A stretch of DNA of 64,000 bases from Candidatus Thorarchaeota archaeon. Its GTDB lineage: Archaea; Asgardarchaeota; Thorarchaeia; Thorarchaeales; Thorarchaeaceae. The stretch covers positions 915 to 64,914 of the forward strand of contig JAUWOU010000002.1 in assembly GCA_030612005.1 (NCBI GenBank), read 5' to 3'. The position numbers and the translations under genes are program-made. This document shows, in pieces, positions 73 through 22,947 of this stretch. Numbering within the stretch: position 1 is the first letter of the stretch; every line of letters starts with the position of its first letter. Below the pieces are notes generated by a model that was not told the origin of the DNA, did not search any database, and saw only the letters and a list, made by a program, of their open reading frames with translations.

Positions 73-1281
73 GTGGACGGACTTGGCATCTATGAAAACA
101 TTACAATTGAAACACCAGTGACTGTACTTCAACCTCTTGAGGTCAATCTGCAAGTCCCCTCTCTAACTTATAGTGATCAATCTACACTCAACCTTCAACT
201 GTATCCTCTATATGATTCCTCATTCACGGAGGGTCTAGACCTCACAATTACGCTCTATGTTTCAAATGACAACACTACTTGGGTGTCCATTGGTGAGTTC
301 ATCACTACTACTTCAGGCTGGCAAAGTATAGACTGGACCTGCACAGACTCAGGCATGCTCTTCTTCAAGGTCGAAGCAGTGAGTACTGAACTTTACACTG
401 AGAGTATCGGCTATGCGAACTCAGCGGCAATGAAGGAAATAACAGTATTGACAATAGAAGGTGTTGGAAACTTCATATATAGTGATCAAGGTGTACTTGT
501 AGCCCTGCTTTCAACTGATGATGGTGAACCCCTTTCTGACTACTCTGTATACCTAGAGATAATGGATGGGACATGGGTAAGCATAGGTTCAGGCCTTACA
601 AACGAGTCTGGTCATGTAAGTATCCTCTGGACACCCATGCTTTCAGCTGGTACTTATTCTATACAGATACGCATGTCACTTGCTGGTTCACAGTACTACC
701 TCACACCGGATAATGCAGTGGGAATAATTACAGTAGGTAAGGAATCCACTGTGGTTAGTATTGATTCTGCAACAGCAGCTCAAGGGTATGTACGTACAAG
801 AGTCACTGACGATGATGGTAATCCTATTGTCAGTATTCAAGTTCATTTCTATGTTGGTAGTAATCATGAATACCGAGGGTCTGGAATCACTGATAATGAT
901 GGATATACGCGTTTGAATATCACTTTGAACAATGATGAAACATTGGAAGCTGTAGTCAATGAGGATGACTTCTACTATGGTTCTATTGAACAGGTTACAG
1001 TTGCATTACCACTCGATCTTATGTTCATTATCTCTATATTGAGCGCTATCTGTCTCGTTGTAACTCCAATAGCTGTAGGTCGAAAAGTCATTCGTGGAAG
1101 AAGAGCATCAAGTCCACCATCTGTATCACCCGAGGTCAGTAAAGCATTGGAAGCGGAACGTGATAGTATTCCAGAAAGAGTTCGTGAGCATTCTGAAAAA
1201 CGGCTTGCTGAACTTGATGGTATAGGAATAGATAGCGGAGAAACCACCGAAACTCTATCAATTGATGATGACAGTACATGA
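73..1281 (+). CDS. Cell-surface protein with beta-sandwich (Ig/carboxypeptidase-regulatory-like) repeats and a C-terminal TM anchor followed by a charged cytoplasmic tail. The true start may lie upstream of the window.
   Basis: The protein is Thr/Ser/Val-rich with a repetitive beta-strand pattern (e.g. GTYSIQIRM, VRTRVTDDDGNPI). A hydrophobic helix (LMFIISILSAICLVVTPIAV) is followed by RKVIRGRR. No specific family was recognised. Confidence 0.45.
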   Translation: MDGLGIYENITIETPVTVLQPLEVNLQVPSLTYSDQSTLNLQLYPLYDSSFTEGLDLTITLYVSNDNTTWVSIGEFITTTSGWQSIDWTCTDSGMLFFKVEAVSTELYTESIGYANSAAMKEITVLTIEGVGNFIYSDQGVLVALLSTDDGEPLSDYSVYLEIMDGTWVSIGSGLTNESGHVSILWTPMLSAGTYSIQIRMSLAGSQYYLTPDNAVGIITVGKESTVVSIDSATAAQGYVRTRVTDDDGNPIVSIQVHFYVGSNHEYRGSGITDNDGYTRLNITLNNDETLEAVVNEDDFYYGSIEQVTVALPLDLMFIISILSAICLVVTPIAVGRKVIRGRRASSPPSVSPEVSKALEAERDSIPERVREHSEKRLAELDGIGIDSGETTETLSIDDDST

Positions 1282-1317
1282 GGGAGAAACATGTCGATTG
1301 ATAAACGGAGAGAATGA

Positions 1318-2445
1318 ATGATGTGGGACTCTTGGGATGTCACAACCTACACTGGCTTGAACCTTGATGAAGAAGAGGCTGATAGAATCTACATGATGAG
1401 TCCAGAAGAACTCCTCAGAGAGGCCAATGACCTTCAAGTTAGACCTCGAAAGAAACGAGTCGCTTCAATTGCATTTCTCCACTATGCACGACGGTGTATG
1501 GAGATTGAGAGATGGCACTATGTGGAAGACGCCCTCAAGACAGCAACCACACTAGATTCAAAGAACGGCGCAGCTTGGTTCCATCGAGGTATGGTCCTGA
1601 TGAGGGAACATGCATATCATAACGCTAGTCGAGCCTTCAAGAAGGTTTGCAAACTACAACCACAAGTTATTGATCACTGGGCTGAGGCCGGTGCTGCGTA
1701 TTATCATCTTAAGCAGTGGGATGACAGTAGGGAGGCTCTTGAGCAGGCTCTGGTGATCAAGCGTACTCCTCGTGTGCTACAATTCTTGGGACTGACTCTT
1801 TTCGAACTCGGACAGGAGAATGAGGGACTGACCTTGTTGCAAGAGGCATACACACTTGCTCCTGATGATAGAGGAATACTGTTCACACTGGGCATCATTC
1901 TCTTCCGACTTGATAAGACTCCGGAGGCTTTACCACTCCTTCAACAATCTGTAGATCAACCGAAGAAACAAAATAAGACAGAGAAACGAAGGGTTCGTGA
2001 TGCACTTGATATAGGAAGGAGTGATTTTGGGTCTTGGCTTGTTCTTGCGGATGTCTTTGAGCGTCTTGACCGGCGCTGGGAAACCATCATGATTTTTGAG
2101 ATGGCAACAAGGGTCATGCCCAAGAATGCTCAGGCGTGGTACGAGCTATCGCAAGTTCACACTGATTACGACCTTTACGAGGATGCAGTCCATCAAGCCT
2201 ATGAATTGGATAAAACAGATCCAGATATTCTCTGTGAACAGGGACAACTATTCTTTGATGCAGGGCTTAAGAAATATGCACTAGACATGTATCTAGAGGC
2301 AGTTGCTTGTGACCCAAAGCACGAGTTCGCTTTGGGACGAATTGATGAGATCGAGGAGGAATTCGAGGAACTTGAACGTTATGGACATGCCCCATATCTT
2401 GGAGAGTATGGTTACAATGCAGCGTATGATGACTACTATGACTAG
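1318..2445 (+). CDS. TPR-repeat protein
   Basis: Repeated 34-residue TPR-like units with the W/Y-x-G-x-A-Y pattern (AWFHRGMVLMREHAYHNASRAFKKV; HWAEAGAAYYHLKQWDDSREALEQAL; AWYELSQVHTDY). Confidence 0.6.
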   Translation: MMWDSWDVTTYTGLNLDEEEADRIYMMSPEELLREANDLQVRPRKKRVASIAFLHYARRCMEIERWHYVEDALKTATTLDSKNGAAWFHRGMVLMREHAYHNASRAFKKVCKLQPQVIDHWAEAGAAYYHLKQWDDSREALEQALVIKRTPRVLQFLGLTLFELGQENEGLTLLQEAYTLAPDDRGILFTLGIILFRLDKTPEALPLLQQSVDQPKKQNKTEKRRVRDALDIGRSDFGSWLVLADVFERLDRRWETIMIFEMATRVMPKNAQAWYELSQVHTDYDLYEDAVHQAYELDKTDPDILCEQGQLFFDAGLKKYALDMYLEAVACDPKHEFALGRIDEIEEEFEELERYGHAPYLGEYGYNAAYDDYYD

Positions 2446-2450
2446 GAGGA

Positions 2451-3389
2451 TTGGAGATTACAACATTCATAGACCTTGGAGCTGAAGACTATCTTCGTCT
2501 TATGAGAGATTCCTTGGACGAAGAAGTATTCAATAATCCAGATAATCAGGTCATCATCAATGATTTCGCCAACCAGAATCTTGTTCAGGCTGAGATTGAT
2601 TGTATGCTCAGGATCCAAGAGGACGAGAATGACAGTCTTGTGTGGGCGTTTTTTGGATTGTTCATGATGTTGCGTACAGATACATTTACAGCGGGACCTG
2701 CATTAGAGAAGGCAGTTGCTTCTGACCCTAAGAACATCTTTGCATTGAACCTCTTGGGAGACTTCCTGTGTAGAAACGGAGATTCTAAGAGAGGAGAGGG
2801 CTTCTACTGGCGCTCACTTCAATTGAAAAAGAAACAAGTCCATCCTTTCAAGATGCTCTACTATCAGTTCATGTTTCGAAAAGAGTATGAGAGAGCACTC
2901 AGGATGATGCAGGCAGTCCTTCTCATCGAACCAAATGATGGTAGAGCTTGGGCAAGTATTGAGTATACGATTCGAAAGATGGAATCCGATGCCTTTGCTG
3001 AAACAATCATGCTAACTCTGACCAAACATTTACCAAAACAGTATCGTGCTTGGTATATCTACGGTAGTCTTCTCCATAGGACTAAGAAGTACAATGAGGC
3101 TGAGAAAGTCGCACGTCAGTCGATTGAATTGAGAGATGACCATGCTGGATCTTGGTCACTGCTTGGAACTGTACTCACCGATCAAGGTAAGGTTGAGGAA
3201 GCAATCGAATGCTATCTCTGGGCTGTGAAGATCGAACCAATGAACATGGAGCTGTGGTTCCTCCTTAGTTTGCTCTTTCTCAAGAATGGAGATGAGAGTG
3301 AGTGGAAACGTGCATTAGATGTGGTTGTGTCTATAAATCCAGAAAAAGCAAGGGCATTACTGGAGAATCTTGAAGGGAAAGAGAAGTAG
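2451..3389 (+). CDS. TPR-repeat protein, adjacent paralog-like partner of the previous gene
   Basis: TPR-like helices (ALNLLGDFLCRNGDSKRGEGFYWRSLQL; AWYIYGSLLHRTKKYNEAEKVARQSIEL; SWSLLGTVLTDQGKVEEAIECYLWAVKIEP). Starts 6 nt after the previous stop. Confidence 0.6.
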   Translation: MEITTFIDLGAEDYLRLMRDSLDEEVFNNPDNQVIINDFANQNLVQAEIDCMLRIQEDENDSLVWAFFGLFMMLRTDTFTAGPALEKAVASDPKNIFALNLLGDFLCRNGDSKRGEGFYWRSLQLKKKQVHPFKMLYYQFMFRKEYERALRMMQAVLLIEPNDGRAWASIEYTIRKMESDAFAETIMLTLTKHLPKQYRAWYIYGSLLHRTKKYNEAEKVARQSIELRDDHAGSWSLLGTVLTDQGKVEEAIECYLWAVKIEPMNMELWFLLSLLFLKNGDESEWKRALDVVVSINPEKARALLENLEGKEK

Positions 3390-3522
3390 TATCTCAGTAC
3401 TATCGTCTTACACATCATATCCAAGAGAGTATGTACAGATGGGGATTGAAAAGGACGTATGAATCGAAATGAAGGAGAGATTTAAATCATAGAACCTGCT
3501 TGACAACAAAGAGGGAGATTTC

Positions 3523-4095
3523 TTGAGCATCTTTGATGACCGTCAGTCAATGATTGAGGTTTGGAAACAACTTCGTGAAGAGATGAGACAGCATGAGGAA
3601 GATACATTGAATGCAGCTGAACGTATCAATAATCTGAGCGTTGCTATTCTACCCGTGTATTTTGTTGGGTTGGGTCTTATATTCTCAATGCTAACAGGAA
3701 TGATACAAACGATGTTTTTGTTCAGTCTCGGATTCTTCCCTCTCATTCTTGTTGCTCTAGCAATCATGGGGAAAAGGTCCCTTCGGAGGAAATACCGCAC
3801 CAGGATATACCATTTTACACAAATACGGAAGGTTGAGATGATGTTAGGACTACATGAGTCAATTTCTGGTCGACTTGAAGGGCAACCATTCCATAAGGAC
3901 ATAACTTTGTTTTCTCCTCTATATATCCCAAAAATGGAATCGTCATGGGAATTCGCGGAGAAAGTTCTTTCTGGAGAGTTCGAGAGTGAGATTTTCCCTG
4001 AAATATCCGGAGGTTATTCGGTATTCATCGTCTTCGGATCAATTCTGACAATTGTAAATTTCATTATATGGGGAATTCTGTTTCTTTCCCTCTAG
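3523..4095 (+). CDS. Hypothetical membrane protein with 4 predicted TM helices
   Basis: Hydrophobic segments (AILPVYFVGLGLIFSMLTGMIQTMFLFSLGFFPLILVALAIM; FIVFGSILTIVNFIIWGILFLSL). No recognisable family. Confidence 0.4.
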   Translation: MSIFDDRQSMIEVWKQLREEMRQHEEDTLNAAERINNLSVAILPVYFVGLGLIFSMLTGMIQTMFLFSLGFFPLILVALAIMGKRSLRRKYRTRIYHFTQIRKVEMMLGLHESISGRLEGQPFHKDITLFSPLYIPKMESSWEFAEKVLSGEFESEIFPEISGGYSVFIVFGSILTIVNFIIWGILFLSL

Positions 4096-4304
4096 TCTAT
4101 TCCTATTGATGGATATTGAAAAGGACCTATTTTCCAATAATTATCAAAATAGTTAGCCATTGGGAAATTACAGAAATACCCCCGTACAGTACCACTAAAT
4201 GATAAATAGAGCATTTGAAACCCAAATATTGCAGAACTAATATTGGAGTTCATCAAGTCGTGAGTAAGAGCAGTCTATTACCAGAGAAAAGGTGAAAGTA
4301 ACAA

Positions 4305-4823
4305 ATGAATAACCGAAAACTATTGCTTGTAACAATCTTAGCAATCTTGGTAGTAATGCCAATAATGAATGTAGCAGCATATGAAGGATTACCAACAATT
4401 TTGTTGGATGCACCTGAAACTGTTTACGCAGGAGAAACTTTCACACTGGACATAGAACTAGGTTGTGATATTGGAATGTCTTCATACAAAGTTACCTACT
4501 ACTGGGATAGTGAGGAAATAGTTCTTGTTGATGATTTTCCTCTTGCAGGTGTAACGTGGTATTCTAAATCTATTGACTTGACACTGACTCCTCCTTGGTA
4601 TTATACTAACGACGATGGTGTATCATATTACGCTCCACGATTCTTTGTGACGTGCAATGACACAGAAGAAAGGATGGTAGGAGAAAACATTATGGTGAAA
4701 ATTCTAAAGCCCGTTGAGGATACTTCGTTCTTAGGACTTCTGGGAATATTGGGAATCGTAGCCGTTGGAGCGATTATTGTCACTGTTGTAATTCTAAAGA
4801 AAAGAATGAATGGGAATATCTAG
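4305..4823 (+). CDS. Secreted or surface protein with an N-terminal signal peptide and a C-terminal TM anchor ending in a KKR tail
   Basis: N-terminus MNNRKLLLVTILAILVVMPIMNVAAYE and C-terminus LLGILGIVAVGAIIVTVVILKKRMNGNI. An AT-rich promoter-like region lies upstream (4096-4304). Confidence 0.45.
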   Translation: MNNRKLLLVTILAILVVMPIMNVAAYEGLPTILLDAPETVYAGETFTLDIELGCDIGMSSYKVTYYWDSEEIVLVDDFPLAGVTWYSKSIDLTLTPPWYYTNDDGVSYYAPRFFVTCNDTEERMVGENIMVKILKPVEDTSFLGLLGILGIVAVGAIIVTVVILKKRMNGNI

Positions 4824-4831
4824 AATCCCCG

Positions 4832-5032
4832 TTAGGGGGTAAAGCGCATCTTCATCCACTCATCCAACTCCTGTAATGATCGAAAACTCACCTTCACACT
4901 GGACTCCTGACTGTGCTCATAGACCTCAACCCTTGCACCATTGCGCTCTTTCTCTGAAAGACTGTCCACAAGGACAAGAGCCTGACGTATCTCTTCCCAC
5001 CCAGTGAGGGTCTTTCCCATCCACTGACTCAA
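4832..5032 (-). CDS. Small hypothetical protein (66 aa), last ORF of the HEPN/KaiC-like operon
   Basis: ORF starts 25 bp downstream of the HEPN gene stop on the same strand. No family recognised; it could be spurious. Confidence 0.25.
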   Translation of the reverse strand: MSQWMGKTLTGWEEIRQALVLVDSLSEKERNGARVEVYEHSQESSVKVSFRSLQELDEWMKMRFTP

Positions 5033-5057
5033 CGTAGTATCTATAATGAAAGGCGTA

Positions 5058-6506
5058 TTAAGAGCAGTGTATGAATTCTTTGTAACGACCTACTGCTTTC
5101 TCTAAACGCTTCTTTGTTACCTTAAGATTTTCAATCTGCATAGATGATTTGCCTAGATCATTGAGCAAATTATTCTCGTCTTCAGGTGTTTTGCAGTCTG
5201 AATCCAATAACATCAGAATCGATAATCGTAGACTCTCTAATAATTTCGGGGATAGTTCAGATGCTTTATCTTCATCTACCTCATTGCCATGAACAAAATC
5301 ATTCCGAATTTTATACCCCTCATAGACATTACTAAAAACTTCAGATCGATTACACCCTAAACATTCCAATAAAATAGCAACTCTTGTTGAGAGCGTAAAA
5401 CGTAGCTCAGGAGACTCTCTTTGAAGAATGGTTTCCAACCCGATTATGGAAAATAATATGGATTCAAGAGTAGGCCGTTGTGATGCTTCATTAAGCATTT
5501 TAAGTGCTCTCGCTACTCTCATGAGATTTTTTTCCTTTTTCATTCTAGTAATATACTCAGGATAGGAGGAGTTTCTAACAAGATCGTAAACCTGTAGATG
5601 TTCTTCTTTGAAATATGAGTAATCATAGACACCAAGTTTCAAAAGAAATCGTTCAACAGGTAATCGATTGTCTATAGATGAACTATATAGTACATGATCT
5701 GTTTCAGCAAACCAAGAGGAATATTTCCACTTTCCTCCTACTGCTAGTCTTAGAATCTCTATCTCTTTCTCTATCATACTGACTATTTTCTGATAATTAT
5801 CATAGAACTTGAAATGATATCCACGAGGAATTCCACTAGCCATAAATTCCAACACAGATGAAACTGCAATTACTGTTGATTCTTTCACCTCAGAAGGAAT
5901 ATTCGGCTGAGTGTTTGGTACACGAGGTACTCTAAAAGTCTTGAAGTCACTAGCCACAGGTAGTCTAATCGTTACTCCGTCTATTGAATATCGAATCTTA
6001 CTGACAAGACCGTTCAAAAATACAATACAACGCCAGTCTGTCGGTACTTGCATAATTTCATCATACGCAGTTTGTATTATTTCTTGTTTCTTTTCTGGAT
6101 GATTTATGAGTCGTTCTAGATAGTGATATGCACCAATTGAGCCATCATCCAGAAAGACACTTCCAACAATCTCTTTCAGTTCTTGAAAGAGAGGCTTAAC
6201 TTCTGTCAGTATCATTAACCTTGCATTTCGACTCAATGATTGTATTTGTTCAGACTGCCCTGGTTTGTATTGTACCGAAACTCCAAATTCGCCACCAGGT
6301 GTGATTGTAGGATGGTAGACCAAATATAGTTCAGTCCTTTTTTCTTCATCAGGAATCGATTTTATCATTGAAACAACTGATTCTGCAAATTCTTCAAGCA
6401 CAGATTTTGCTTCTTTGGGTGAATGTCTGTCTGATTTCATTACATTTCCCTCCATAATCAGAATATTCATTTTTACACTAATCAATGTTGATGAAAACAC
6501 TACCAC
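5058..6506 (-). CDS. Large protein with a C-terminal HEPN-like domain (Rx4H motif). The true start is probably an internal Met near 6440 (MKSDRHSPKEAK).
   Basis: C-terminal region ...LSTRVAILLECLG...YEGYKIRNDFVHGNEV... carries the R-x4-H signature of HEPN RNase domains in an alpha-helical context. The motif is encoded at about 5281-5320. The N-terminal 350 aa have no recognisable family. Confidence 0.55.
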   Translation of the reverse strand: MVVFSSTLISVKMNILIMEGNVMKSDRHSPKEAKSVLEEFAESVVSMIKSIPDEEKRTELYLVYHPTITPGGEFGVSVQYKPGQSEQIQSLSRNARLMILTEVKPLFQELKEIVGSVFLDDGSIGAYHYLERLINHPEKKQEIIQTAYDEIMQVPTDWRCIVFLNGLVSKIRYSIDGVTIRLPVASDFKTFRVPRVPNTQPNIPSEVKESTVIAVSSVLEFMASGIPRGYHFKFYDNYQKIVSMIEKEIEILRLAVGGKWKYSSWFAETDHVLYSSSIDNRLPVERFLLKLGVYDYSYFKEEHLQVYDLVRNSSYPEYITRMKKEKNLMRVARALKMLNEASQRPTLESILFSIIGLETILQRESPELRFTLSTRVAILLECLGCNRSEVFSNVYEGYKIRNDFVHGNEVDEDKASELSPKLLESLRLSILMLLDSDCKTPEDENNLLNDLGKSSMQIENLKVTKKRLEKAVGRYKEFIHCS

Positions 6507-6575
6507 TCGATTTCAGATATTGAAGGTGGCGAACACACAATTAATCCCAACCCCTCCATAAAGCAACGATATCTC

Positions 6576-7307
6576 TCACACCTTGAGTCCAATACCCTTG
6601 ACTGTAATCTCGTAGGGAATCACATCCATCGAGTGCATGGTCTCTCGCATTTTGACAATACGAAGTTTCCTACTTACAGTCATATCCTTTTCATCATAAC
6701 CTAATCTGATTACTCCATGTGACGCATAGCGTTCTACTCCTACTCCTGCCTGATCTAACTCTGAAGTAAGAATAGTTGTTAGGGAGAGACGAGTAAGGAC
6801 TGCGGTTAGACTGAGAACACCATTTCTTCGCTCGGTTCCTTCCATTCCATCAAGAAGTGCTGAAACTGGATCAATCACTAAACGCTGTGCATTTATCTCT
6901 TCTTTAGCTTCGGTTATTAATCGGGTCACTTCTTCAATACTGAACTTGCCTATTGGTACAGCAAGCTCAAGATTGGGTTTTAGTCCAAGTCGACCAGAAA
7001 ATGCATCGATGATTTTGAGTTGTTTAAGATCCATTAATCGTTGAAGATTCCATCCAAAGGCAGAGGCCTCTCTCATCACATCAGTCGGACTCTCATCTAG
7101 ACATACAAGAATTGCTGGTTCAGGGTCTTTTGGATTCTCAAGAATTCCAGCAATGAGAAAGTGTAATGATAGTATTGTCTTACCTGTTCCTGGAAGTCCT
7201 TCAACAAGAGTTGTGCGTCCTCTTGGAAATCCCCCTAATAACATCTCATTCAATTCTTTGATTCCGGTGCTACATCTATCCGTCTGTTTCAATGGTTTCA
7301 CCTTCAT
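6576..7307 (-). CDS. KaiC-like / RadA-like single-domain RecA-superfamily ATPase
   Basis: N-terminus GIKELNEMLLGGFPRGRTTLVEGLPGTGKTILSLHFL carries Walker A GLPGTGKT. Walker B-like ILVCLDE. About 240 aa, typical of archaeal KaiC-like proteins. Confidence 0.8.
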   Translation of the reverse strand: MKVKPLKQTDRCSTGIKELNEMLLGGFPRGRTTLVEGLPGTGKTILSLHFLIAGILENPKDPEPAILVCLDESPTDVMREASAFGWNLQRLMDLKQLKIIDAFSGRLGLKPNLELAVPIGKFSIEEVTRLITEAKEEINAQRLVIDPVSALLDGMEGTERRNGVLSLTAVLTRLSLTTILTSELDQAGVGVERYASHGVIRLGYDEKDMTVSRKLRIVKMRETMHSMDVIPYEITVKGIGLKV

Positions 7308-7893
7308 TTGTTATAGTTGGGTGTTTGAGTAAGTGCCACTTATGACTGAACTTTCCATTGTCTGATTCTCTTGTAACGTCAATGTAGTTGGTGGCAATAT
7401 ACTTCAGAGTAGCAAGACCTCGGTCAGAATGTACTCCCTTTGCTACAAATGCCAAAAATCGAACCTTTGAGAAGTCCTTAGCAATAATACGTAAACATCG
7501 ACTGATCTCTTCATCTGTAACCCCTTGGGCTACCATATCAGAAGGAGACCACCACAACCACCATGATGCTTTGATTGACTCAGCTAGCTTTCCTAGGCGA
7601 TTAAGAACTCCTTTTGTATCTGCAGGATTCTCTAAAAAGTTTTCACTATCATAATCACTCACACGTTGGCGAAGTGAATCTCGCGCAGTGGGTTCATGCC
7701 TAGTGGCGTCAATGAGAGTTGTGTTTTCTATATCAGTGTCTATTGGTTTGGAGTGGATAATGGCTTGAGAATCTTCCCCGATATCATCACGTATTTGCTT
7801 TAGCACCACATACTCTGCTTCAATTGGAAAACTGATGATACTTAGGCCACTGGTTCCAAACCATTTGTTCAATGGGATTGTAGTAATCTTCAA
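7276..7893 (-). CDS. Hypothetical protein (205 aa), translationally coupled between the HTH regulator and the KaiC-like ATPase
   Basis: Overlaps the upstream gene by 4 nt (7890-7893) and the downstream gene by 32 nt. No family recognised. Confidence 0.5.
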   Translation of the reverse strand: MKITTIPLNKWFGTSGLSIISFPIEAEYVVLKQIRDDIGEDSQAIIHSKPIDTDIENTTLIDATRHEPTARDSLRQRVSDYDSENFLENPADTKGVLNRLGKLAESIKASWWLWWSPSDMVAQGVTDEEISRCLRIIAKDFSKVRFLAFVAKGVHSDRGLATLKYIATNYIDVTRESDNGKFSHKWHLLKHPTITNEGETIETDG

Positions 7894-8435
7894 CTCCTCC
7901 TTCCTGTTTCTGTAGAAATAGTCGATTCGGAATCATCTATTGATGAAGATTGGCTATACATAGGAATACCATGGACCTGATCAAGAAGATGGGCAGTGAC
8001 AGAATCCCTTGCCATGTTTTGTTTACGAGAAATGGTAGTCTTCAATGTGTCAATATCTGTTGTCATTGTGATACAGTTTACCTGTAGCTCGTTCTGAATT
8101 TGATACACATAGACTGTTAGAGGTACATGTCCAACACCAGTCTTGAGAAAATCTATGAGGCCCTTGATGGTTGATTCCAATTCAGTCTGAAACTGGTATA
8201 GATTCGAATCAATGAGCACTTGAACTAGATATGGTTTCCCGAATATTGAAGGAATAACCTCGGGGATATATCCCAACACAAGACCATCCTCTTCCAACTT
8301 CCTGGTACGATACAGGGCTGTAGATTTGGGGATGTCCAATGCACGACCTAATGCAGCTGGACTACTTTTCACGGAGTTTCGCAATGAGAGAAGTGTAGCT
8401 GTCCAATCACCAATTGTCTTCTTCTGTTGACCCAA
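7890..8435 (-). CDS. Lrp/AsnC-like winged-HTH transcriptional regulator, first gene of the operon
   Basis: SPAALGRALDIPKSTALYRTRKLEEDGLVLGYIPEV matches the AsnC-type HTH pattern (LA..vGlS.st...Rv.rLee.GvI.gY). It is followed by a YLVQVLID region resembling a RAM-like domain. Confidence 0.6.
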   Translation of the reverse strand: MGQQKKTIGDWTATLLSLRNSVKSSPAALGRALDIPKSTALYRTRKLEEDGLVLGYIPEVIPSIFGKPYLVQVLIDSNLYQFQTELESTIKGLIDFLKTGVGHVPLTVYVYQIQNELQVNCITMTTDIDTLKTTISRKQNMARDSVTAHLLDQVHGIPMYSQSSSIDDSESTISTETGRRS

Positions 8436-8450
8436 TTTGAACCCTCAATA

Positions 8451-8518
8451 TTGTCCATTGTTCAATTCCATATAAACTCAGTTGTCCATTGTTCAACTCG
8501 AATTGTCCATTGTTCCAA
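8451..8518. promoter_or_regulatory. Three direct repeats TTGTCCATTGTTCAA (8451-8465, 8482-8496, 8504-8518; the third is TTGTCCATTGTTCCA) bracketing a TATAAA element (8471-8476), in the divergent intergenic region between the HTH-regulator operon (-) and the membrane-protein gene at 8575 (+)
   Basis: The repeats are exact 15-mers read directly from the sequence. The TATA is about 36-41 bp upstream of the ATG at 8435. This is a likely operator for the adjacent Lrp-like regulator. Confidence 0.5.
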
Positions 8519-8574
8519 AATGCTTGGGTTAATGGTTAAGTAAACTATCGGCAAGTTCTTTCTTGTGATATAAA

Positions 8575-8889
8575 ATGTCGTTTGATATCGTAAACTTCCT
8601 GTTAGGCCCAGCAGAAATCCTAACACAGGGAATGGTGGGTCTCATCTTGGGACTCGGAATGAATGCTATGCAGATCTGGTTGATGTACGAGATTGTTGTT
8701 CTTGTCCCTCCACGGTCTAAGAATCTGATCGATGCTATGGACATGGAACTCAGTCAGACTCAATACTTCAGTGGGATGAAGTATCGAATATACTCTGCAT
8801 TGTTTCAGGTCTTTTTACCACTAGTGCTGATCTGTGTATGCTACCTATCATTCTGCCTGTTCACTGACGTTGTTACATCCCTGTTCTAG
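8575..8889 (+). CDS. Small membrane protein with 2 TM helices
   Basis: GMVGLILGLGMNAMQIWLMYEIVVLV and VFLPLVLICVCYLSFCLF. Size and topology resemble CedA1/CedA2-type small proteins, but similarity cannot be tested here. Confidence 0.4.
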   Translation: MSFDIVNFLLGPAEILTQGMVGLILGLGMNAMQIWLMYEIVVLVPPRSKNLIDAMDMELSQTQYFSGMKYRIYSALFQVFLPLVLICVCYLSFCLFTDVVTSLF

Positions 8890-8903
8890 AACATCTGAGG
8901 TGA

Positions 8904-9584
8904 ATGTTAAGAATGCGCTTACGCATTGCCCACCACTCCCCTCTTTTTTTGAGGGTTATGTTTGCAATATCAATGGTCCTTCTTGTTAGCAGTATCACAC
9001 TCTGTTCAGCTCAGGAAGTAAGTGACGATATTCCATGCATAATTCTAGCCAAACCAGGGGAATTGTATGAGTTGGAGTTGTATCAGCTTGGAAATGACAC
9101 TCAGCATACTATCATTATCAGCTTTAACTTTGAGAATGAAAGTGCACACAGGTTAGAAGTGCAAGTTCCATACAATGGTAATTATGACTCAGCATCCGAA
9201 ATATATTGCGTAAATGACGACTCAGGGCTACTATTGTGCACGATAAAGTATGTAGGGATTGAAACTGTACTTCTTGGGGAAGAGCGAGCCAAGCTTGAGG
9301 TAGACAGTTCAGACTACCAAGCACGCTTAGTTGGTGTGCATTTGTCCGAGTCTTCGTCTTCAAGAGATATAGCGATTCCAAAGTCCTTTGGGATCATTCT
9401 TGCTCTGTGCAGTCTATTGCCATTCTTCCTACTGGCCCCTGATGCAATAACAGACTTGCAGGCACAACTGGAAGTAGAAGCAGCATCGAAAGGAGTGTAT
9501 GGACGGATTCTTGCTCTGCTACTCCCACTTCTAACAATCGGTTTGACTTTTTGGCTTTTGGAGAGTTTGAAAATATTCGGGTGA
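8904..9584 (+). CDS. Secreted protein with a signal peptide and a C-terminal hydrophobic region
   Basis: N-terminus MLRMRLRIAHHSPLFLRVMFAISMVLLVSSITLCSAQE. C-terminus ILALCSLLPFFLLAP...ILALLLPLLTIGLTFWLL. Confidence 0.45.
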   Translation: MLRMRLRIAHHSPLFLRVMFAISMVLLVSSITLCSAQEVSDDIPCIILAKPGELYELELYQLGNDTQHTIIISFNFENESAHRLEVQVPYNGNYDSASEIYCVNDDSGLLLCTIKYVGIETVLLGEERAKLEVDSSDYQARLVGVHLSESSSSRDIAIPKSFGIILALCSLLPFFLLAPDAITDLQAQLEVEAASKGVYGRILALLLPLLTIGLTFWLLESLKIFG

Positions 9585-10414
9585 TGAACATGACAGCAAC
9601 TACACACAAGGGATTGAAACAACGTATAGCGCATTATTATGCGAAAAAAGACGCAGAAGCGGATAAAGGATCAGAAGCGGATAAAGAACGGAAAAGGGAA
9701 CTGAAGAGGAACTGGGATCAGTCAGGAGGTTCCTTGAAAGGTTGGATGAACAAATTCACTGGAGGTCTTGATCTTCCATTCAAATCTATAGCCATCTTTG
9801 CAGGTAGTTGGATGCTTTTGGAGATTGGTTGGCCTCTCTTGATAATATTTGGAGTGGCAACCGCTGGAAACGTGTGGAGTATTGCAACCGTAATTCCATG
9901 TCTATTCATTGCAGTATATGTCAATATCATGGTTAGTGGAATGAACATGATTCGCAGCATAATCACACAATTGGGGGATCGGCGGGACAATCTGGTGAAG
10001 GCATTATTTCGAGGATACTTTTGGAGCCTCTTGTCAATTGGGCTCATTCTGATAGTCCATGAATATTTCCATACCACTATGCCAATGCTGTTCTTTATAC
10101 CCATCTTTTATCTCATACCACTCCAAGTTCTTGGAACCACAGTCCCGTTTCCTCTATTACTTGGAATAAGTGGATTGTACATGGATCTCGCCGTTACAAT
10201 CATTGTGTATGCCATTGGGATAACTGGCAGTGCCATTGGTGGCATTGAGATTCTGCGTACCCTGCTGGACAATTCTCGACAACGTGGTACATATGGTGCG
10301 ATTTTCGGTGTGTTACTTCTAGCTGTGTTCCCAGTGGTGAACATCTACTTCTCACTGGTATTTCTAACGACTACTATGGATCTTTTTGGGAGGTGTGTGT
10401 CCTTTGGCGCTTGA
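9551..10414 (+). CDS. Polytopic membrane protein with about 6-7 TM helices
   Basis: Multiple hydrophobic helices throughout. Overlaps the upstream gene by 34 nt and the downstream ATPase gene by 29 nt, indicating translational coupling. Size and topology are comparable to CedA. Confidence 0.5.
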   Translation: MAFGEFENIRVMNMTATTHKGLKQRIAHYYAKKDAEADKGSEADKERKRELKRNWDQSGGSLKGWMNKFTGGLDLPFKSIAIFAGSWMLLEIGWPLLIIFGVATAGNVWSIATVIPCLFIAVYVNIMVSGMNMIRSIITQLGDRRDNLVKALFRGYFWSLLSIGLILIVHEYFHTTMPMLFFIPIFYLIPLQVLGTTVPFPLLLGISGLYMDLAVTIIVYAIGITGSAIGGIEILRTLLDNSRQRGTYGAIFGVLLLAVFPVVNIYFSLVFLTTTMDLFGRCVSFGA

Positions 10415-13187
10415 TCCGATTGCCCTGCTGAGCTTGATAGTTCCTCTCTTAGTCGTCTTTGGATTCAGTATATTGGCCATGACTATGATCCATCTTGGAT
10501 TATCCGCAAGTGGTAATCGTTTCGCTATGGAGATTACCTGCTTCTTGGGTATGGCAGTGTTCTATGGAACTGAGATAGTCCTAGGCATAACTTCGCTAGA
10601 ACTGACTCTATCGATGCTACTACTGATTACTCCGGTTATGGTTATCGAGGCTTTCAGGCCTTCAAACGAACGTAAGGGCAACAAGCCTCAACTAGTTAAG
10701 ATTGAAGGTGGAACAGACAGGCTTGCTAAAGAAGTCCTATGCTTCGCACATGGTGATGGATATGTAGGCCTTGCAGCAATCCGGATCAAAGGCATTCCGT
10801 TACAGAATGAACGACGGAACAATAAGCATGAGGAGAATGAGGATTTCAAATGGCTATACCCATTTTGGGAAGACAGCAAGAAATCCAATGGCGTATTCAC
10901 TCTGGAAGCAAAGTTTGAGAAGGGGCTTGCTGACCTCCGTTTCTTCACGATCAGTCACGACAAGGACTTCAAACAAGCAGTGGAAAAGACAGACAGATCA
11001 AGACAGATTGCAGAAACTTGGCTCACACGTATTGAGTACGACTATGAGGTTGTATCTTCTGATGAACTATGGAATGTATATCGTGAACTGGACTATGGCT
11101 CATTGCGCGCGACTTCTATGCCGGATGTGGTACAATCAGAGGATGATGGGTATCTTAGTGGACTCTCTATTGAACATCTACCAGATAGTCTATCGAGTAA
11201 CTGGGGCGAAGTGCTTCAGCAGTTCCTAAGAAGCCGTCTTTCTGGACATGCTCTTCTCTCCTTTTCCTCAGGACCTGTTCCCAAGTTGCATGAACGGGCA
11301 GGTGAGAGCAGAGAGGACTCAAAAGTACAAACGAGAACTCCTTTCCGTGTTGAAGACCACAAACTTCGAAAAACGTACAAACAGATGGCAGAGGTTGCAG
11401 CATGTGAGGAAACAGGCGCATTTCGGGTAGGGACAGCAGTCTTGCTCCGTGGTGGAACAGCTGAAGATGTTGAGTATGCTGTGAAGCAAACAGAAGCTGT
11501 TATTCAGGGAGTATGGGGCGGAGTGAAAACTACTAACCTATCAGGTGGTCGTTTACGACATAATTGGACCAAATTCCTACTGCGTAATTACATTGGCAAA
11601 TCTACTTCTGTAAGTGGCGCACGACTGACCGGATTATTACAGATCTACGAAGCCATGCCTGGTGTTCCAAATCATATAGTACCACCTGCTTTTGCGATTC
11701 CTATTCGTCATACTTCAATTGATTCGGTCACTTTCGGTCAAATCCTTGAAAGAGGTAAGACGACTGCTCAAGAGTATAGTATTCCCATTAATTCATTCTG
11801 TCTTCATACGGGAATTTATGGCAACCCTGGAAGCGGTAAGACCAATACAGGATTGGAACTCACCCATCAGGTTTACCAACATGGAATTCCATTTCTTGCT
11901 ATCGTTCCAGCCAAAACTGAGTGGAGAATGCTATCAGCATACATTCCAGAGCTACGGATCTTTACTGCTGGTGATGATTCTACTTCACCATTCCGATACA
12001 ATTTCTTCGATGTTCCACCGGGAGTTCCTATTCAGACACACATCAACAACATTACACTATGTTTCATAGCAAATTGGCCAACAGAGGGAATTCTCACTGA
12101 ACATATCACGAAGATATTCAGACGAACCTATACCAATGCAGGCTGGAACTTGCTCACGAACGAGCGAGGCAGTCCCATTCTACTGAATGACTTGTACTCC
12201 GCAATGGAAGAGGTCGCAAACGAACTAAGGTATGGGGCTCGCTTGAAACAAGACTTTGTGGGAGCCCTTACTGCAAGGTTTGAGTCCCTTTTGGATGATC
12301 CTGTATTGTCTGTCATGCTAAACACTAGACATGGGATAACAATACCCGAATTGTTGAGTAATCCGACAATTCTAGAGCTTCGTCATCTTCCTGATACTCA
12401 AAGAGCACTAATAACGAGCCTGATCATGGTGGCAGTGACGGAGTATCTTGAAGCTCAGGAGCCTTCTATCAATCAAGAGTTACGTCATTTACTAGTCTTG
12501 GAGGAAGCTCACCACGTTCTGAAACGTGTTGGGAATGGATACGGCATAAATGAGGGTCATTCATCCCAGCAGCAGGCAATCAACACCATCGTTCAACTCC
12601 TTCGTGAGGCACGCGGTCTCGGCTTGGGTGTGGTACTGATCGACCAGTTACCGGGAAGTCTGGCTGATGCTGCAGTAAAGCTTCCAGGTATCACGATGAT
12701 CCACTCACTCAAGGATGCACGAGAGAGACTTCTGGTGGGGGGTCAGGCAAACTTGAATGATGCGCAACTCCTGCACATAGGCTCTCTGAAATGTGGAGAA
12801 GTAGTCATCCATCAAGCCTTTGAAGGCCCAGCGGTACTTGCTCAAGTGTTTCAATTCCGTAGAAAACACGCAGCCGAACCTTGGACTGACAGACGAGTAG
12901 CAGACATGATGACGCCTTTCTTCATTGCAAACCCACATCTCCGAAGTCAGAACCTTCCCATGATACGACGGTGGGAAGCTGATCCCGTAGTACTTGACAA
13001 TCTCAAATTTCTGACAGTATCGCTAGATTTCAGAAAGGCATACATAGAATGTCTTGTCCAAGGGCAGGAATATGCAGACGCATACGTCTTGGGGTTAGTA
13101 CAGGAACTCGTTCCCAACTTCACAGAAGCCGCCCACTACTGCAATTGTCTAGTTGACCATCTTGGGGAGGTTGAGAGCAGTGGATGA
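10386..13187 (+). CDS. Membrane-anchored HerA/FtsK/VirB4-superfamily P-loop ATPase (CedB/TedB-like architecture)
   Basis: N-terminal ~90 aa contain 3-4 TM helices. Walker A GIYGNPGSGKTN is encoded at about 11825-11860. Walker B of HerA type (hhhhEEAH) is LLVLEEAHHVL, encoded at about 12490-12520. Confidence 0.7.
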   Translation: MGGVCPLALDPIALLSLIVPLLVVFGFSILAMTMIHLGLSASGNRFAMEITCFLGMAVFYGTEIVLGITSLELTLSMLLLITPVMVIEAFRPSNERKGNKPQLVKIEGGTDRLAKEVLCFAHGDGYVGLAAIRIKGIPLQNERRNNKHEENEDFKWLYPFWEDSKKSNGVFTLEAKFEKGLADLRFFTISHDKDFKQAVEKTDRSRQIAETWLTRIEYDYEVVSSDELWNVYRELDYGSLRATSMPDVVQSEDDGYLSGLSIEHLPDSLSSNWGEVLQQFLRSRLSGHALLSFSSGPVPKLHERAGESREDSKVQTRTPFRVEDHKLRKTYKQMAEVAACEETGAFRVGTAVLLRGGTAEDVEYAVKQTEAVIQGVWGGVKTTNLSGGRLRHNWTKFLLRNYIGKSTSVSGARLTGLLQIYEAMPGVPNHIVPPAFAIPIRHTSIDSVTFGQILERGKTTAQEYSIPINSFCLHTGIYGNPGSGKTNTGLELTHQVYQHGIPFLAIVPAKTEWRMLSAYIPELRIFTAGDDSTSPFRYNFFDVPPGVPIQTHINNITLCFIANWPTEGILTEHITKIFRRTYTNAGWNLLTNERGSPILLNDLYSAMEEVANELRYGARLKQDFVGALTARFESLLDDPVLSVMLNTRHGITIPELLSNPTILELRHLPDTQRALITSLIMVAVTEYLEAQEPSINQELRHLLVLEEAHHVLKRVGNGYGINEGHSSQQQAINTIVQLLREARGLGLGVVLIDQLPGSLADAAVKLPGITMIHSLKDARERLLVGGQANLNDAQLLHIGSLKCGEVVIHQAFEGPAVLAQVFQFRRKHAAEPWTDRRVADMMTPFFIANPHLRSQNLPMIRRWEADPVVLDNLKFLTVSLDFRKAYIECLVQGQEYADAYVLGLVQELVPNFTEAAHYCNCLVDHLGEVESSG

Positions 13188-15321
13188 AGGTTCTGACTTC
13201 GCCTCTTCTCCATTGGTTTCTTATTGGTCTGAAACACGGTTAGATATCATTCTTTGGAAGAATGAGAGTGAGTCATATCGCGGTTTCTTAAAGTACAGCA
13301 ATCCCACGGTTTCAGCGGAACTTGAGAATGGAACAACCGTCGTTCCTGATACGAAAGAAGACCTATGCGTAACTATTGAGTATGAAGTCATATTGAAAGA
13401 AACAGGGATAAGTGAACAAAGACCCCTGAAAAGACCAGTCAAGATACTCCTTAACCCAATTGTCACTCAACGTTACAGGTATTTTCCAAACCTTGATGGT
13501 AGAGGGGAATTTATCTTTCCGCCATCAACCAATAGATTCTACTCAAGACTTTTTGTTCTGGATCTTGAAAAATACTATGATGACGACGGTAGTATAGGTG
13601 CTCGTTGTTCCCTTCATCAGTGTCCAAATCAGAAGGATAGACTATGGCTCACAATATCAAACTCAGAAACCGGAGAGATCTACGAAGCCTTCCTCATCCA
13701 CCACTATGAAGGTAACATCTTTTTGATGCCCAATGATGCCCAGTTAGATTTTGCCCTTGCAAAGAGGTATGCAGATGGTGTTCGCAAATCGGACCTGTTC
13801 GATGTTGAAGGGCTCCTGAAAGGGCCACCGCCATCAATGGCCCAGCTAGCGATGTTGGTGCAGGATGTCAATGTACCGAACCTTATGATACATGATACCC
13901 TTGAGAGAACAATCTCACAACTAGTACCTCAGGTGTTTCCTGAAAACATAAGACAAAGCCTTTGCGTTTTCCTTGGCCTCCTTGCTCTTGATAAGATTGA
14001 ACAACGCAAGGACCCTGATGATCTTTCGGTCGAGTTCGCCCCTTGGAGAATGGTCAGTTCTCTCTACAATAGTCACTTACTTTACACTATTCTAAAAATC
14101 GAATCACCTTCATACGTTCGACTCATGCATCTAGCTGCACGAAGGGAGATGCAAGGAATCGGTAGAACTGTTAGGGAAGATATTGGTAAGAGTGAGTGGC
14201 TCATGTTCTGGCATCTACTTCACGATGGAGTGAAGAATTTCCGTGATGAGATACCTATTCTTCTGGATATCGTAGAAAGATCGAATCAGTTGGGTACGAT
14301 TACAGGCAAAATCATACCCTCCAAGTCTACGGGGCAACGTTCACGTAAGGCTTGGGTGACACGGTTAGTATGTAACTCTTCAGTTACTAGCCCCTCACTG
14401 ATTTGTACTCCCAATCTAAAGGCTCTTGGACTTGATCAGATTCTCTATCTGGGGTCCGCCTATTGCTGGCCTCACAGGCACATGTCATATATCACAAGTT
14501 TAGGAAGATGGCAGGTTAATAATCCACCACATCTACAACACATGATCCTCCCCTCGAAGGCTTCCGAACGAATCAGACGTCTGATTCCGTCAGTGTTGAA
14601 TGTTACTTGGAGTAGTAGGACTTTCAATCCTGACCTGTATACTAATCAGTGGAATGTGCGACCAGATGATATCTTGAGTTCCTTAGGTCGGACTAGACCA
14701 CTAACCACTCTGAGAAAGAAGTACTATACTCCTTCCCTCTGTGATGTTGATTATATTACTCCAACTGAAGCCTTGGTCATGGATATCATTACACGCTCAT
14801 TTCACATGATGTATTTCAAAGAACGACCATATTTGTTCGAGAAAATGTTCGGGATTGAGAAGCAACTTTTCATTCGTACTGCGCGTTCGTTGGCCAAGAG
14901 AGGGGTTCTGGAGCCACAATATATCCTAATCCCACTACTTCCTACACTGGCTACCATTGCCTGTGGAGAACCAAAGAATATCGTTTCTCTTGCTGATGCA
15001 TTTCTGTCGGGATCTCCTACATGCACAGCCTACATCTGTAACGAGGGAAACGATGCAGTCTTTCTCTCTCGAATACCACCCTCAGACCTAGGAGAACTTG
15101 CTAGGTCGCTCCCACAAGCAGGACAAGAACATGGGACTACCATTCGCTGTTTTAGACCTCACACCCTTAGAAGTTACAATCATTCGCTATACCAGAGATT
15201 ACTACGAGAGGATGGCACATGGGATGATGATGTGCGTGGATTCCTCTCTCAGGCACGAGGGAAGAGAGTTGAGATTGCAAATGTAATTGATAGCATGAAA
15301 ATTAAGAGTTGTATAACATGA
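13153..15321 (+). CDS. Large hypothetical protein (722 aa), translationally coupled to the ATPase
   Basis: Start overlaps the ATPase stop by 35 nt. No recognisable motifs by eye. Confidence 0.5.
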   Translation: MTILGRLRAVDEGSDFASSPLVSYWSETRLDIILWKNESESYRGFLKYSNPTVSAELENGTTVVPDTKEDLCVTIEYEVILKETGISEQRPLKRPVKILLNPIVTQRYRYFPNLDGRGEFIFPPSTNRFYSRLFVLDLEKYYDDDGSIGARCSLHQCPNQKDRLWLTISNSETGEIYEAFLIHHYEGNIFLMPNDAQLDFALAKRYADGVRKSDLFDVEGLLKGPPPSMAQLAMLVQDVNVPNLMIHDTLERTISQLVPQVFPENIRQSLCVFLGLLALDKIEQRKDPDDLSVEFAPWRMVSSLYNSHLLYTILKIESPSYVRLMHLAARREMQGIGRTVREDIGKSEWLMFWHLLHDGVKNFRDEIPILLDIVERSNQLGTITGKIIPSKSTGQRSRKAWVTRLVCNSSVTSPSLICTPNLKALGLDQILYLGSAYCWPHRHMSYITSLGRWQVNNPPHLQHMILPSKASERIRRLIPSVLNVTWSSRTFNPDLYTNQWNVRPDDILSSLGRTRPLTTLRKKYYTPSLCDVDYITPTEALVMDIITRSFHMMYFKERPYLFEKMFGIEKQLFIRTARSLAKRGVLEPQYILIPLLPTLATIACGEPKNIVSLADAFLSGSPTCTAYICNEGNDAVFLSRIPPSDLGELARSLPQAGQEHGTTIRCFRPHTLRSYNHSLYQRLLREDGTWDDDVRGFLSQARGKRVEIANVIDSMKIKSCIT

Positions 15322-16733: not shown

Positions 16734-16766
16734 CTGTCGTGTCGAAACGGTTTTAAGCACGCTCCT

Positions 16767-17447
16767 GTGGTTCGAACAAGTTACTCGATGTATATAGGAG
16801 ATACCATCTTGGCCACAACAATTGATGATGAAGAAATCGACCTACTCATAGAGATGGATCGCTACCTCGCAGCCGGCTGCCACATCGGCACCCAAGTCAA
16901 AACGCAGGATATGGAGCCCTTTGTATACAGACAACGCCCAATCGGCCTATACGTTCTTGATGTTCGTAAGACTGATGAGAGGGTAAGAGTAGCTGGAAAG
17001 TTCTTGGCTCGATTTGATCCTTCCAAGATTGTAGTGGTATCTGGTCGTGTCTATGGTAAAAGACCAGTTGAAACCTTTTCCTACTATATTGGAGCCAGTG
17101 CTTTTACAGAGAGATTTGTTCCTGGTACCCTAACCAATCCTAATATTGCAGGACCACGAACGTACATTGAACCAGATGTAGTGGTACTTACTGACCCCCG
17201 TACGGACCAGCAGGCGCTTAATGAGGCTGCAAGAATCGGAGTACCAGTAGTTGCATTATGTGATACTGATAACGTAACAACAAATATCGATCTTGTTATT
17301 CCTACGAACAACCGTGGTCGGAAATCACTTGCACTAGTATACTATCTTCTAACTACTCAGGTCTTGAAAGAGAGGGGCGATATGCCTGAAGATGGTGAGC
17401 CCGTATACACGCCAGATGACTTTGAACCACAAGTACAGAGGTTCTGA
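16767..17447 (+). CDS. rps2: 30S ribosomal protein S2 (uS2)
   Basis: [40 protein letters not shown] and [32 protein letters not shown] match conserved uS2 blocks. Confidence 0.85.
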
Positions 17448-17451
17448 TAGT

Positions 17452-17865
17452 TCATCCTTCAATTAGAGTAACGACGCCATTATCGGCGTCAACCTCTATC
17501 TTTTGTCCATTCTGAATTTTTCCAATATCAATCTGATCTACTGCAGGTATCTCTGAAATAATACAACCCACAGCAACAACCGGGTCCATTATTTTATTGA
17601 CAATTGCAAGAGGAGCTTTTTCTGCTTTCTTCAACGCATACAAAACATATGACCCTACTGTAGAACCTTTTCCGCTGGGAAAAACAAGGACTTTTCCTGA
17701 TACAGACTTTCCCTCTAGATGATGTCCCTTTTCTACTATCTCACCAGTTTCAGGATCACAACCACCGTAGAATGATATGTCATCTCCAGTAACTAGAGCT
17801 TCACCAGTTACTTTTCCCTTGAAGATTTTCCTTCCTTGCATTATGATATTGCCTCCTTGATACAC
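17452..17865 (-). CDS. AcnX-type small subunit (DUF126 family), candidate phosphomevalonate dehydratase small subunit
   Basis: About 137 aa with GEALVTGDDISFYGGCDPETGEI. Overlaps the large-subunit gene by 25 nt. Sits in an operon with MVK and a UbiD-like gene. Confidence 0.65.
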   Translation of the reverse strand: MYQGGNIIMQGRKIFKGKVTGEALVTGDDISFYGGCDPETGEIVEKGHHLEGKSVSGKVLVFPSGKGSTVGSYVLYALKKAEKAPLAIVNKIMDPVVAVGCIISEIPAVDQIDIGKIQNGQKIEVDADNGVVTLIEG

Positions 17866-22870: not shown

Positions 22871-22947
22871 TGGTGTGCCGGACGAGATTTGAACTCGCGA
22901 TCCCTTGGATCCGAACCAAGAATCATACCAATCTAGACCACCGACCC
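22871..22947 (-). tRNA. tRNA-Pro (anticodon CGG) with encoded CCA. One acceptor-stem mismatch (G2.A71).
   Basis: Reverse-complement sequence: GGGTCGG TG GTCT AGATTGGTA TGAT T CTTGG TTCGGAT CCAAG GGATC GCGAG TTCAAAT CTCGT CCGGCAC A CCA. U8, A14, G18G19, U33, A37 and the T-loop TTCAAAT are present. Confidence 0.75.

Follow-up and report, generated by a model that had tools for sequence, protein, structure and literature searches.

A group of genes on a 64,000-nucleotide (nt) stretch of contig JAUWOU010000002.1 from a Candidatus Thorarchaeota archaeon was analysed; this whole stretch is called the window, and the other loci and contigs with which it was compared carry the labels L002 to L030. 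Four genes lie side by side on its minus strand: gene A (7890-8435), an open reading frame (ORF) of 181 amino acids (aa) that starts with TTG at 8435 and encodes a predicted winged helix-turn-helix (wHTH) of the Lrp/AsnC type; gene B (7276-7893, 205 aa), a putative inactivated KaiC-like protein (iKaiC); gene C (6576-7307, 243 aa), a predicted single-domain KaiC-like ATPase; and gene D (5058-6506 as the maximal ORF of 482 aa, or about 460-482 aa depending on the start). A 66-aa ORF on the same strand (4832-5032) is the 5′ fragment of a gene whose intact copy lies in L016. On the plus strand, a divergent cluster of membrane proteins and a HerA-clade ATPase (F1-F4, 8575-13187) is followed by F5 (13153-15321), which encodes a 722-aa soluble protein without a family match. 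An earlier note on this DNA had read genes A to D as one conflict or stress-response module. The ORFs, the Walker A sequence GLPGTGKT, the R-x4-H (Rx4H) motif and the repeats from which it argued were all found where it had placed them; comparison with orthologous loci pointed to a different arrangement of the genes, in which A, B and C belong with the F cluster and D stands apart.

The first three genes are closely joined. A and B overlap by 4 nt at 7890-7893, where TTGA supplies the TTG start codon of B as well as the stop of A, and B and C overlap by 17-32 nt, all start candidates of C (ATG 7307, GTG 7301 and TTG 7292) lying inside the end of B. The gap between the stop codon of the KaiC gene and gene D runs from 69 nt for the maximal ORF to 135 nt; the start candidates of D are GTG 6506, ATG 6470, ATG 6455 and ATG 6440, of which its homologues favour ATG 6455 or 6440. 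Translational coupling, which had been proposed for all four genes, is found for A, B and C only, and gene D is uncoupled.

To place these genes in context, 15 distinct orthologous loci of Thorarchaeota were gathered from look-ups of the encoding contigs, a genome scan and a metagenome scan (the L011 contig breaks off within B, and L030 is a fragment of 1 kb). A, B and C were found to be adjacent in all 15 loci as far as the contigs cover them, and F1-F4 lay opposite A-B-C at every locus whose sequence extends that far, with the identity of B ranging from 98% to 49%. It is clear from this comparison that the conserved unit is a wHTH-iKaiC-KaiC triad, always divergent from the membrane/HerA-type cluster and specific to Thorarchaeota. 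The triad's conserved partner is thus the plus-strand cluster, which lay outside the module of the earlier note. No description of a fixed KaiC/iKaiC pairing with a membrane HerA-type cluster was found in the literature searched, and when viral contigs were scanned for relatives of B, D and F4, one generic ATPase match at 22% identity was all that turned up.

Gene D was not found in this unit. The blastn homology of the window to L018 (88%), L019, L010, L024 (91%) and L026 stops at 6576-6590, that is, at the KaiC stop codon, and D is missing directly after KaiC in 13 of 13 orthologous loci with downstream sequence (0.4-9 kb), including L018 and L024, whose KaiC is 97-99% identical. The neighbourhood comparison proposed earlier as a check for a conserved HEPN-KaiC pairing therefore turned out negative. 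In L018 the gene after KaiC encodes a convergent 289-aa surface-type protein. A homologue with 56% identity to D is flanked on its Thorarchaeota contig by a DUF3160 gene on one side and unrelated genes on the other, with no adjacent KaiC; five further contexts hold more distant members, and in all six the D-family genes adjoin neither KaiC, B nor a wHTH gene. The seven D-family contexts, counting the window, share no common neighbouring gene family. A type IIS restriction-modification pair (N6_N4_Mtase and a FokI cleavage domain) precedes a D-family member by about 1.2 kb in L022, where a gene for an Nmad3-domain protein is also nearby (5733-8749 and 10001-11374 for the pair and the D-family region). 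L026 has a distant D-family member (23% identity) that is separated by about 7 kb from the orthologous KaiC operon upstream of it and has unrelated genes around it. None of the D family was seen on viral contigs in the viral-contig scan, and the metagenome scan for D was also empty.

The base composition and the flank of gene D were consistent with this picture. Its GC content of 0.364 and its GC content at third codon positions of 0.273 are the lowest among the large ORFs of the window (means 0.417, standard deviation 0.025, and 0.351). The 66-aa ORF corresponds to the first 64 of the 93 codons of the gene that is intact at L016 11037-11318; window 5042-4841 and L016 11027-11228 share 88% DNA identity, and the homology stops 9 nt before the stop codon in the window. 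The mismatches between the two at codon positions 3, 1 and 2 number 12, 9 and 2, a pattern that argues for a coding origin of this ORF, and its GC content (0.50) is well over the window mean of 0.41. The intact L016 copy lies 1.6 kb from a D-family gene of 29% identity. The 66-aa ORF probably marks a rearrangement junction. Downstream of gene D, the plus strand at window 73-4823 carries five genes, for two TPR proteins, two small membrane proteins of 190 and 172 aa and a surface protein of the Big_1/macroglobulin-like kind. Neither membrane protein was matched in the orthologous loci, and the five genes are found again on L002, a 9.1-kb contig of the window strain itself; this flank is therefore not conserved. 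The end of synteny at KaiC, the absence of D from the 13 loci, its lone homologues, its low GC content and the truncated ORF together indicate that a strain-specific rearrangement has apparently placed a block of D and the 66-aa gene fragment behind KaiC.

Some neighbours of other D-family genes were recorded as well. Downstream of the KaiC operon in L026, the region 11597-19716 contains a protein with a deaminase-like motif, a leucine-rich repeat (LRR) protein and two ORFs with motifs that look HNH-like by eye, and may be a variable or defence-type region. A 217-aa ORF of L026 had been taken by eye for an AbiV-like protein; this guess was dropped when a sequence search of the PDB gave no support. 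Two distant D-family genes, at L016 2050-3018 and L017 1-744, each have a DUF6602 (PF20247) gene 5-7 kb off, and this proximity may be a coincidence or may reflect a common type of island.

Within the triad, gene C was the most readily recognised. Its PF06745 score of 191.4 bits (E 2e-56) is far over the cut-off of 26.6, and archaeal KaiC-domain models of NCBIfam were matched too. The motifs expected of an active ATPase, Walker A (GLPGTGKT, aa 37-44), Walker B (RLVIDP, aa 142-147) and an acidic pair (CLDES, aa 69-73), were found by sequence inspection to be invariant in eight orthologs, among which identity is 67-98%. Gene C is thus predicted to be a single-domain KaiC-family ATPase with intact Walker motifs, in agreement with what had been claimed for it. 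A KaiC of the cyanobacterial clock was considered and rejected, given the single domain of 243 aa in place of the two tandem KaiC domains of the clock protein, scores far under the cut-offs of the circadian KaiC equivalog models (158.6 vs 408 and 118.6 vs 546) and the lack of any KaiB match among the neighbouring genes in profile searches.

No match to gene B was obtained in sequence searches of Pfam, NCBIfam, PADLOC or the PDB, and it had been described as an orphan. This description had to be given up when an AlphaFold2 model built with 21 family members (pLDDT 80.8, pTM 0.81, a confident model) gave a RecA/KaiC alpha/beta fold. At the position of the P-loop, between the strand at 16-23 and the helix at 24-38, gene B reads SFPIEAEY, and an SFP(I/V)EAEY-like sequence without the glycine-rich loop and without Lys-Thr/Ser occupies this site in 21 of 21 aligned family members. 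A WWLWWSPSD motif is invariant in the family. The alignment of gene B with the KaiC orthologs by hhalign had an E value of 0.23; the aligned segment was nevertheless in structural register. Homologues of B form 25 clusters at 90% identity, and all those with a named source come from Thorarchaeota. We regard gene B as a predicted iKaiC because its model has the KaiC/RecA fold without a P-loop. In PMC5847659, which cites Makarova et al. 2017, iKaiC domains appear as a known concept for archaeal signalling proteins.

In gene A, a wHTH (aa ~14-78) is followed by a further domain of about 100 aa at the C-terminus. It scored 21.6 bits with the Pfam model HTH_24, marginally below the cut-off of 21.9, and a profile of ten gene A orthologs matched solved structures of the Lrp/AsnC family with E values from 6e-7 to 8e-5 (LrpA 1.2e-5), all confined to aa 17-78. 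Past about aa 80, no sequence match, RAM/AsnC_trans_reg included, was found in Pfam or in the ortholog-profile search of structures. When set against the Lrp/AsnC proteins (FFRP; LrpA, ST1022), the N-terminal wHTH and the linker of A match the family, whereas its C-terminal 100 aa have no RAM match and the protein exceeds typical members in length by about 30 aa. Gene A is therefore predicted to be a regulator with an Lrp/AsnC-type wHTH; the earlier assignment to this family stands for the N-terminal wHTH and does not extend to the rest of the protein.

A and F1 share an intergenic region of 139 bp, in which three operator-like boxes were found. The 13-mer TTGTCCATTGTTC is present in three exact copies at 8503-8515, 8482-8494 and 8451-8463 (boxes 1 to 3; minus strand, where they read GAACAATGGACAA), with start-to-start distances of 21 and 31 bp, and no further exact copy occurs in the 64 kb. 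When up to two mismatches were allowed, 10 matches were obtained in the window against 2.9 expected, and none of 100 shuffles reached 10. The exact 13-mer was absent from the nine other loci compared; what is preserved across loci is a CAATG core together with the positions of the boxes, not the full 13-mer. Counted from the start codon of F1, boxes with this core lie at offsets of 62, 83 and 115 nt in four loci (the window, L010, L011 and L003) and at 62 and 115 nt only in L006, with box 2 inverted in L003, L010 and L011. The number of CAATG boxes is 2-4 per ~150 nt, compared with 0.1-0.3 expected. The repeated element that the earlier note had taken for an operator is accordingly judged, from these alignments, to be a real and positionally conserved operator-like element.

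Two TATA-like elements were identified in the same region. For the A-B-C operon, TTTATAT at 8470-8476 on the minus strand precedes the TTG start codon (8435) by 38 nt, and the aligned element reads CTTAAATAG in L010, L011, L003 and L006. For the divergent F1-F5 operon, the distance from TTAAGTAAA at 8536-8544 on the plus strand to the downstream F1 ATG (8575) is about 35 nt. When the A-F1 intergenic regions of seven loci were aligned, the best-conserved block was the one that holds this F-side element, with columns invariant in 7/7 loci; AGTTTACTTAA, about 35 nt ahead of the start codon of F1, is invariant as a block. We infer a promoter role for both elements. The two elements flank boxes 1 and 2, and box 3 is placed between the TATA-like element of A and the A start codon. 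Proteins of the Lrp/AsnC family commonly autoregulate by binding several phased sites over their own promoter. The layout fits an autoregulating Lrp-type protein that would also control the divergent operon, its binding to the boxes being predicted.

The F cluster opens with F1 (8575-8889, plus strand), a protein of 104 aa with one hydrophobic segment by hydropathy. Its identity is 72-99% across loci where its neighbours fall to 43-55%, which suggests a constraint unusually strong for a small protein without a family match. F2 has 226 aa, F3 is a multi-transmembrane (TM) protein of 287 aa and F4 has 933 aa; hydrophobic segments are present in all of F1-F4. F4 is made up of an N-terminal TM region, an unassigned middle domain and a HerA-clade ATPase, and its profile matched HerA of Sulfolobus with E 8e-7. 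F5 gave no match in Pfam or NCBIfam, and its orthologs were found only in L010, L011 and L018, the closest loci. The cluster is closed by a gene for a 474-aa protein (15309-16733, plus strand) with several tandem helix-turn-helix (HTH) units (Sigma70_r4, HTH_23 and Cbp1-like matches), directly followed by the gene of ribosomal protein uS2 of the eukaryotic/archaeal type (16767-17447), which identifies the window as archaeal.

Gene D was then considered by itself. Its residues are counted from ATG 6440 (the numbering of the earlier note is reached by adding 22). The N-terminal two-thirds of the protein are uncharacterised, and the rest is a helical HEPN-like domain, in which KIRNDFVHG, encoded at 5312-5286 on the minus strand, contains an R379-x4-H384 motif (RNDFVH); the HEPN signature is Rx4-6H, and its Arg is usually followed by a polar residue. 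An exhaustive profile search with the D family gave 826 representative clusters at E≤0.001, of which about a dozen align from end to end (440-470 aa) and most only in the ~130 C-terminal aa; close relatives were limited to three among 5.8 billion proteins. In an alignment of 60 sequences with about 20% mean identity, E336, R379, H384 and G385 are invariant and the consensus is AYxIRSxFVHG, and R[S/N]xxxH was present in 152/152 D-family sequences checked. One member carries the NCBI name 'HEPN domain-containing protein'. The HEPN-like C-terminus with a conserved Rx4H motif that had been proposed is borne out by these figures; the domain is probably HEPN-like and gene D is a predicted ribonuclease (RNase).

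The best match of the D-family profile in the PDB, although marginal, was Ec4ApeA (9hxm; E 0.055), aligned at a GLEAL-type helix and the RNxxxH helix. When the D profile was run against the 1097 ORFs of all fetched loci, three Ec4ApeA-type proteins were the sole matches outside the family (E 3e-4 to 1e-2). PF18739 was matched below threshold by 3 of the 60 D relatives (for example P0059, 18.2 bits vs 24.4) and not by gene D itself; the Ec4ApeA-type proteins have no PF18739 match either, and therefore the clade is hard to recognise by sequence. A structure model of gene D, of low confidence, gave weak matches to HEPN folds and also to alpha-catenin-like helical bundles. The latter parallel the N-terminal domain of ApeA, for which a catenin-like fold was reported (bioRxiv 10.64898/2026.01.26.701840).

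Like the ApeA proteins (Ec1-Ec4ApeA, Thr1ApeA), D combines an N-terminal region with a C-terminal Rx4H motif in the architecture of single-gene defence proteins, and by the seven contexts compared it too is a single gene without a conserved partner. It differs in its length (~460 aa, against ~580-620 aa for ApeA) and in having no obvious ~100-aa insertion that splits the HEPN core. For ApeA a doughnut-shaped oligomer, cleavage of tRNA anticodons and activation by a small ligand (a dinucleotide) were reported (bioRxiv 10.64898/2026.01.26.701840). The most economical reading is that D may be a stand-alone ApeA-like HEPN RNase, with membership of that family taken as a working analogy. PADLOC returned no defence-system model for any of the genes, the C-terminus of D or its 60 relatives, and gave weak generic P-loop/HerA matches only. 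A HEPN-MNT toxin-antitoxin pair was rejected: profile searches found no nucleotidyltransferase family among the neighbouring genes of D, and D has ~460 aa compared with ~130 aa for a HepT toxin. In L013, an Ec4ApeA-type gene (3036-5144, on the Escherichia coli plasmid pCE1537-A) adjoins a gene annotated as anti-phage protein Ppl, and this neighbour is consistent with a defence-island location for ApeA.

From these results the region is best explained as a composite of two unrelated units, A-B-C with F1-F4 on the one side and an independently acquired stand-alone HEPN-type gene D on the other, and we put the probability of this reading at roughly 0.65. The Lrp/AsnC-type protein A would bind the three boxes, which are phased about two and three helical turns apart; it would repress its own operon through box 3 because of the position of this box between the TATA-like element and the start codon of A, and it would co-regulate the F operon through boxes 1 and 2 because these lie between both TATA-like elements. 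The pseudo-ATPase B and the active ATPase C may form a mixed oligomer of the KaiC type; A, the HerA-type membrane ATPase F4 or both would then be controlled by it as an ATP-dependent switch, in analogy to the KaiC-like ArlH, which acts on the ArlI ATPase of the archaellum. D would be an RNase activated by infection or stress, independent of KaiC, and would have arrived beside the KaiC gene, together with the truncated 66-aa ORF, by the strain-specific rearrangement.

Several points weigh against this composite reading. D is on the same strand as the triad at 69-135 nt from KaiC, and no clear terminator was identified in between, so read-through co-transcription from C to D may take place in this strain. 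The tie between the triad and the F cluster consists in conserved adjacency alone, and the CAATG boxes are not clear in L008 and L012, the two most divergent loci. On the side of gene D, a comparison by hhalign of the D family with the three plasmid Ec4ApeA-type proteins gave a probability of only 3%, and neither the whole protein nor its C-terminal fragment matched any curated HEPN model at E≤10. Every functional step in the composite explanation is one that we infer.

A bolder proposal, which we hold as tentative and rather doubtful, makes one machine of eight genes. A, iKaiC, KaiC and F1-F5 would form an undescribed Thorarchaeota-specific machine for the translocation of DNA or protein across the membrane, with a motor switched by the split KaiC/pseudo-KaiC pair and expression controlled from the phased operator, as an Asgard counterpart of ArlH-ArlI or of the Ced importer. 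F4, however, belongs to the HerA/FtsK clade and not to the ArlI/VirB11 secretion ATPases, there are no archaellin or ArlJ-like genes at the locus, and the ArlH score was 34.9 bits against a curated cut-off of 215, so that the likeness is an analogy only. F4 also has the architecture of CedD, in which a TM segment and an N-terminal domain without assigned function precede a C-terminal HerA/VirB4-like ATPase (PMC11868833), and like the Ced importer of Sulfolobales (CedA, A1, A2, B, D) it is encoded together with small multi-TM proteins. Membership of Ced nevertheless fails, as F4 reached 39 bits with the CedD model against a cut-off of 600 and neither F1-F3 nor their orthologs matched any Ced component at E≤1. 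No KaiC-like partner is described for Ced (PMC11868833).

A narrower proposal, on which we look as unlikely, takes A-B-C for a self-contained signalling module of the KaiC type with transcription through A as its sole output. B and C would modulate the binding of A to DNA, and the F genes would be just one regulated target or an unrelated neighbour with a shared promoter region, instead of physically partnering the ATPases. The translational coupling of A, B and C, the opposite strand of the F genes and the position of box 3, which suggests autoregulation, speak for it. KaiC-like ATPases and iKaiC proteins are described in PMC5847659, citing Makarova et al. 2017, as archaeal hubs of signal transduction that are tied, by fusion or linkage, to numerous input and output domains. 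The triad resembles such hubs in that C is predicted to be a bona fide single-domain KaiC, B is modelled with the same fold lacking the ATP-binding loop, and the pair is linked to a putative DNA-binding output protein; it differs in that B is a separate polypeptide, beyond recognition by sequence, from a family seen only in Thorarchaeota. This proposal has to face the retention of F1-F4 at the orthologous position down to 49% identity of B, which is beyond what would be expected of casual neighbours.

As to gene D, it is improbable that the protein is not an RNase and that the Arg/His helical domain instead binds a ligand or nucleotide, or is a non-catalytic scaffold, in a housekeeping or regulatory protein. 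R[S/N]xxxH and the upstream Glu are strictly conserved at about 20% mean identity, a pattern typical of a catalytic site; the distribution of the family is patchy and free of context, with one member beside a restriction-modification pair; and the closest protein of solved structure is an antiviral HEPN RNase. The weakest of the readings is the single four-gene conflict or stress module, in which KaiC and the 205-aa protein would gate a HEPN RNase under an Lrp-like regulator: in spite of the shared strand and close spacing, the HEPN-like nature of D and the distant D-family gene in L026, which hints that the two are sometimes in the same neighbourhood, it is highly improbable, since D is missing after even nearly identical KaiC genes, its family occurs alone in six other contexts, its base composition is unlike that of A-C and no PADLOC model fits such a system. 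The earlier note had itself named a lack of co-conservation as decisive against this module, and it fails because the four genes are not co-conserved and synteny ends at the KaiC stop codon.

The analysis thus removes a tempting but false KaiC and HEPN defence system, and illustrates that adjacency on one strand can mislead when orthologous loci are not compared. To our knowledge, almost nothing is known experimentally about KaiC-based control in Asgard archaea. A family that was an orphan by sequence is now a predicted iKaiC, always paired with a putatively active KaiC-like ATPase and opposite a HerA-type cluster, and offers a testable case of such control. The three-box operator-like element with its conserved phasing is a ready target for footprinting. 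If RNase activity is true of the 826-cluster, mostly unannotated archaeal family of putative ApeA-like HEPN proteins to which D belongs, single-gene HEPN defence would extend to Asgard archaea and haloarchaea.

Three minor observations were made elsewhere in the window. A tRNA at 22874-22947 on the minus strand was the sole match at the Rfam gathering threshold across the window. Between the ORFs at 53709-54899 and 55206-56045, a stretch of 270 nt (54917-55186) is 98.5% identical to L016 6792-7061, far above the other sequence shared; no Rfam match was found within 54700-56200 around it, and the stretch may represent either a small conserved ORF or a mobile fragment. L026 gave matches of 67-102 nt to window 55893-55993.

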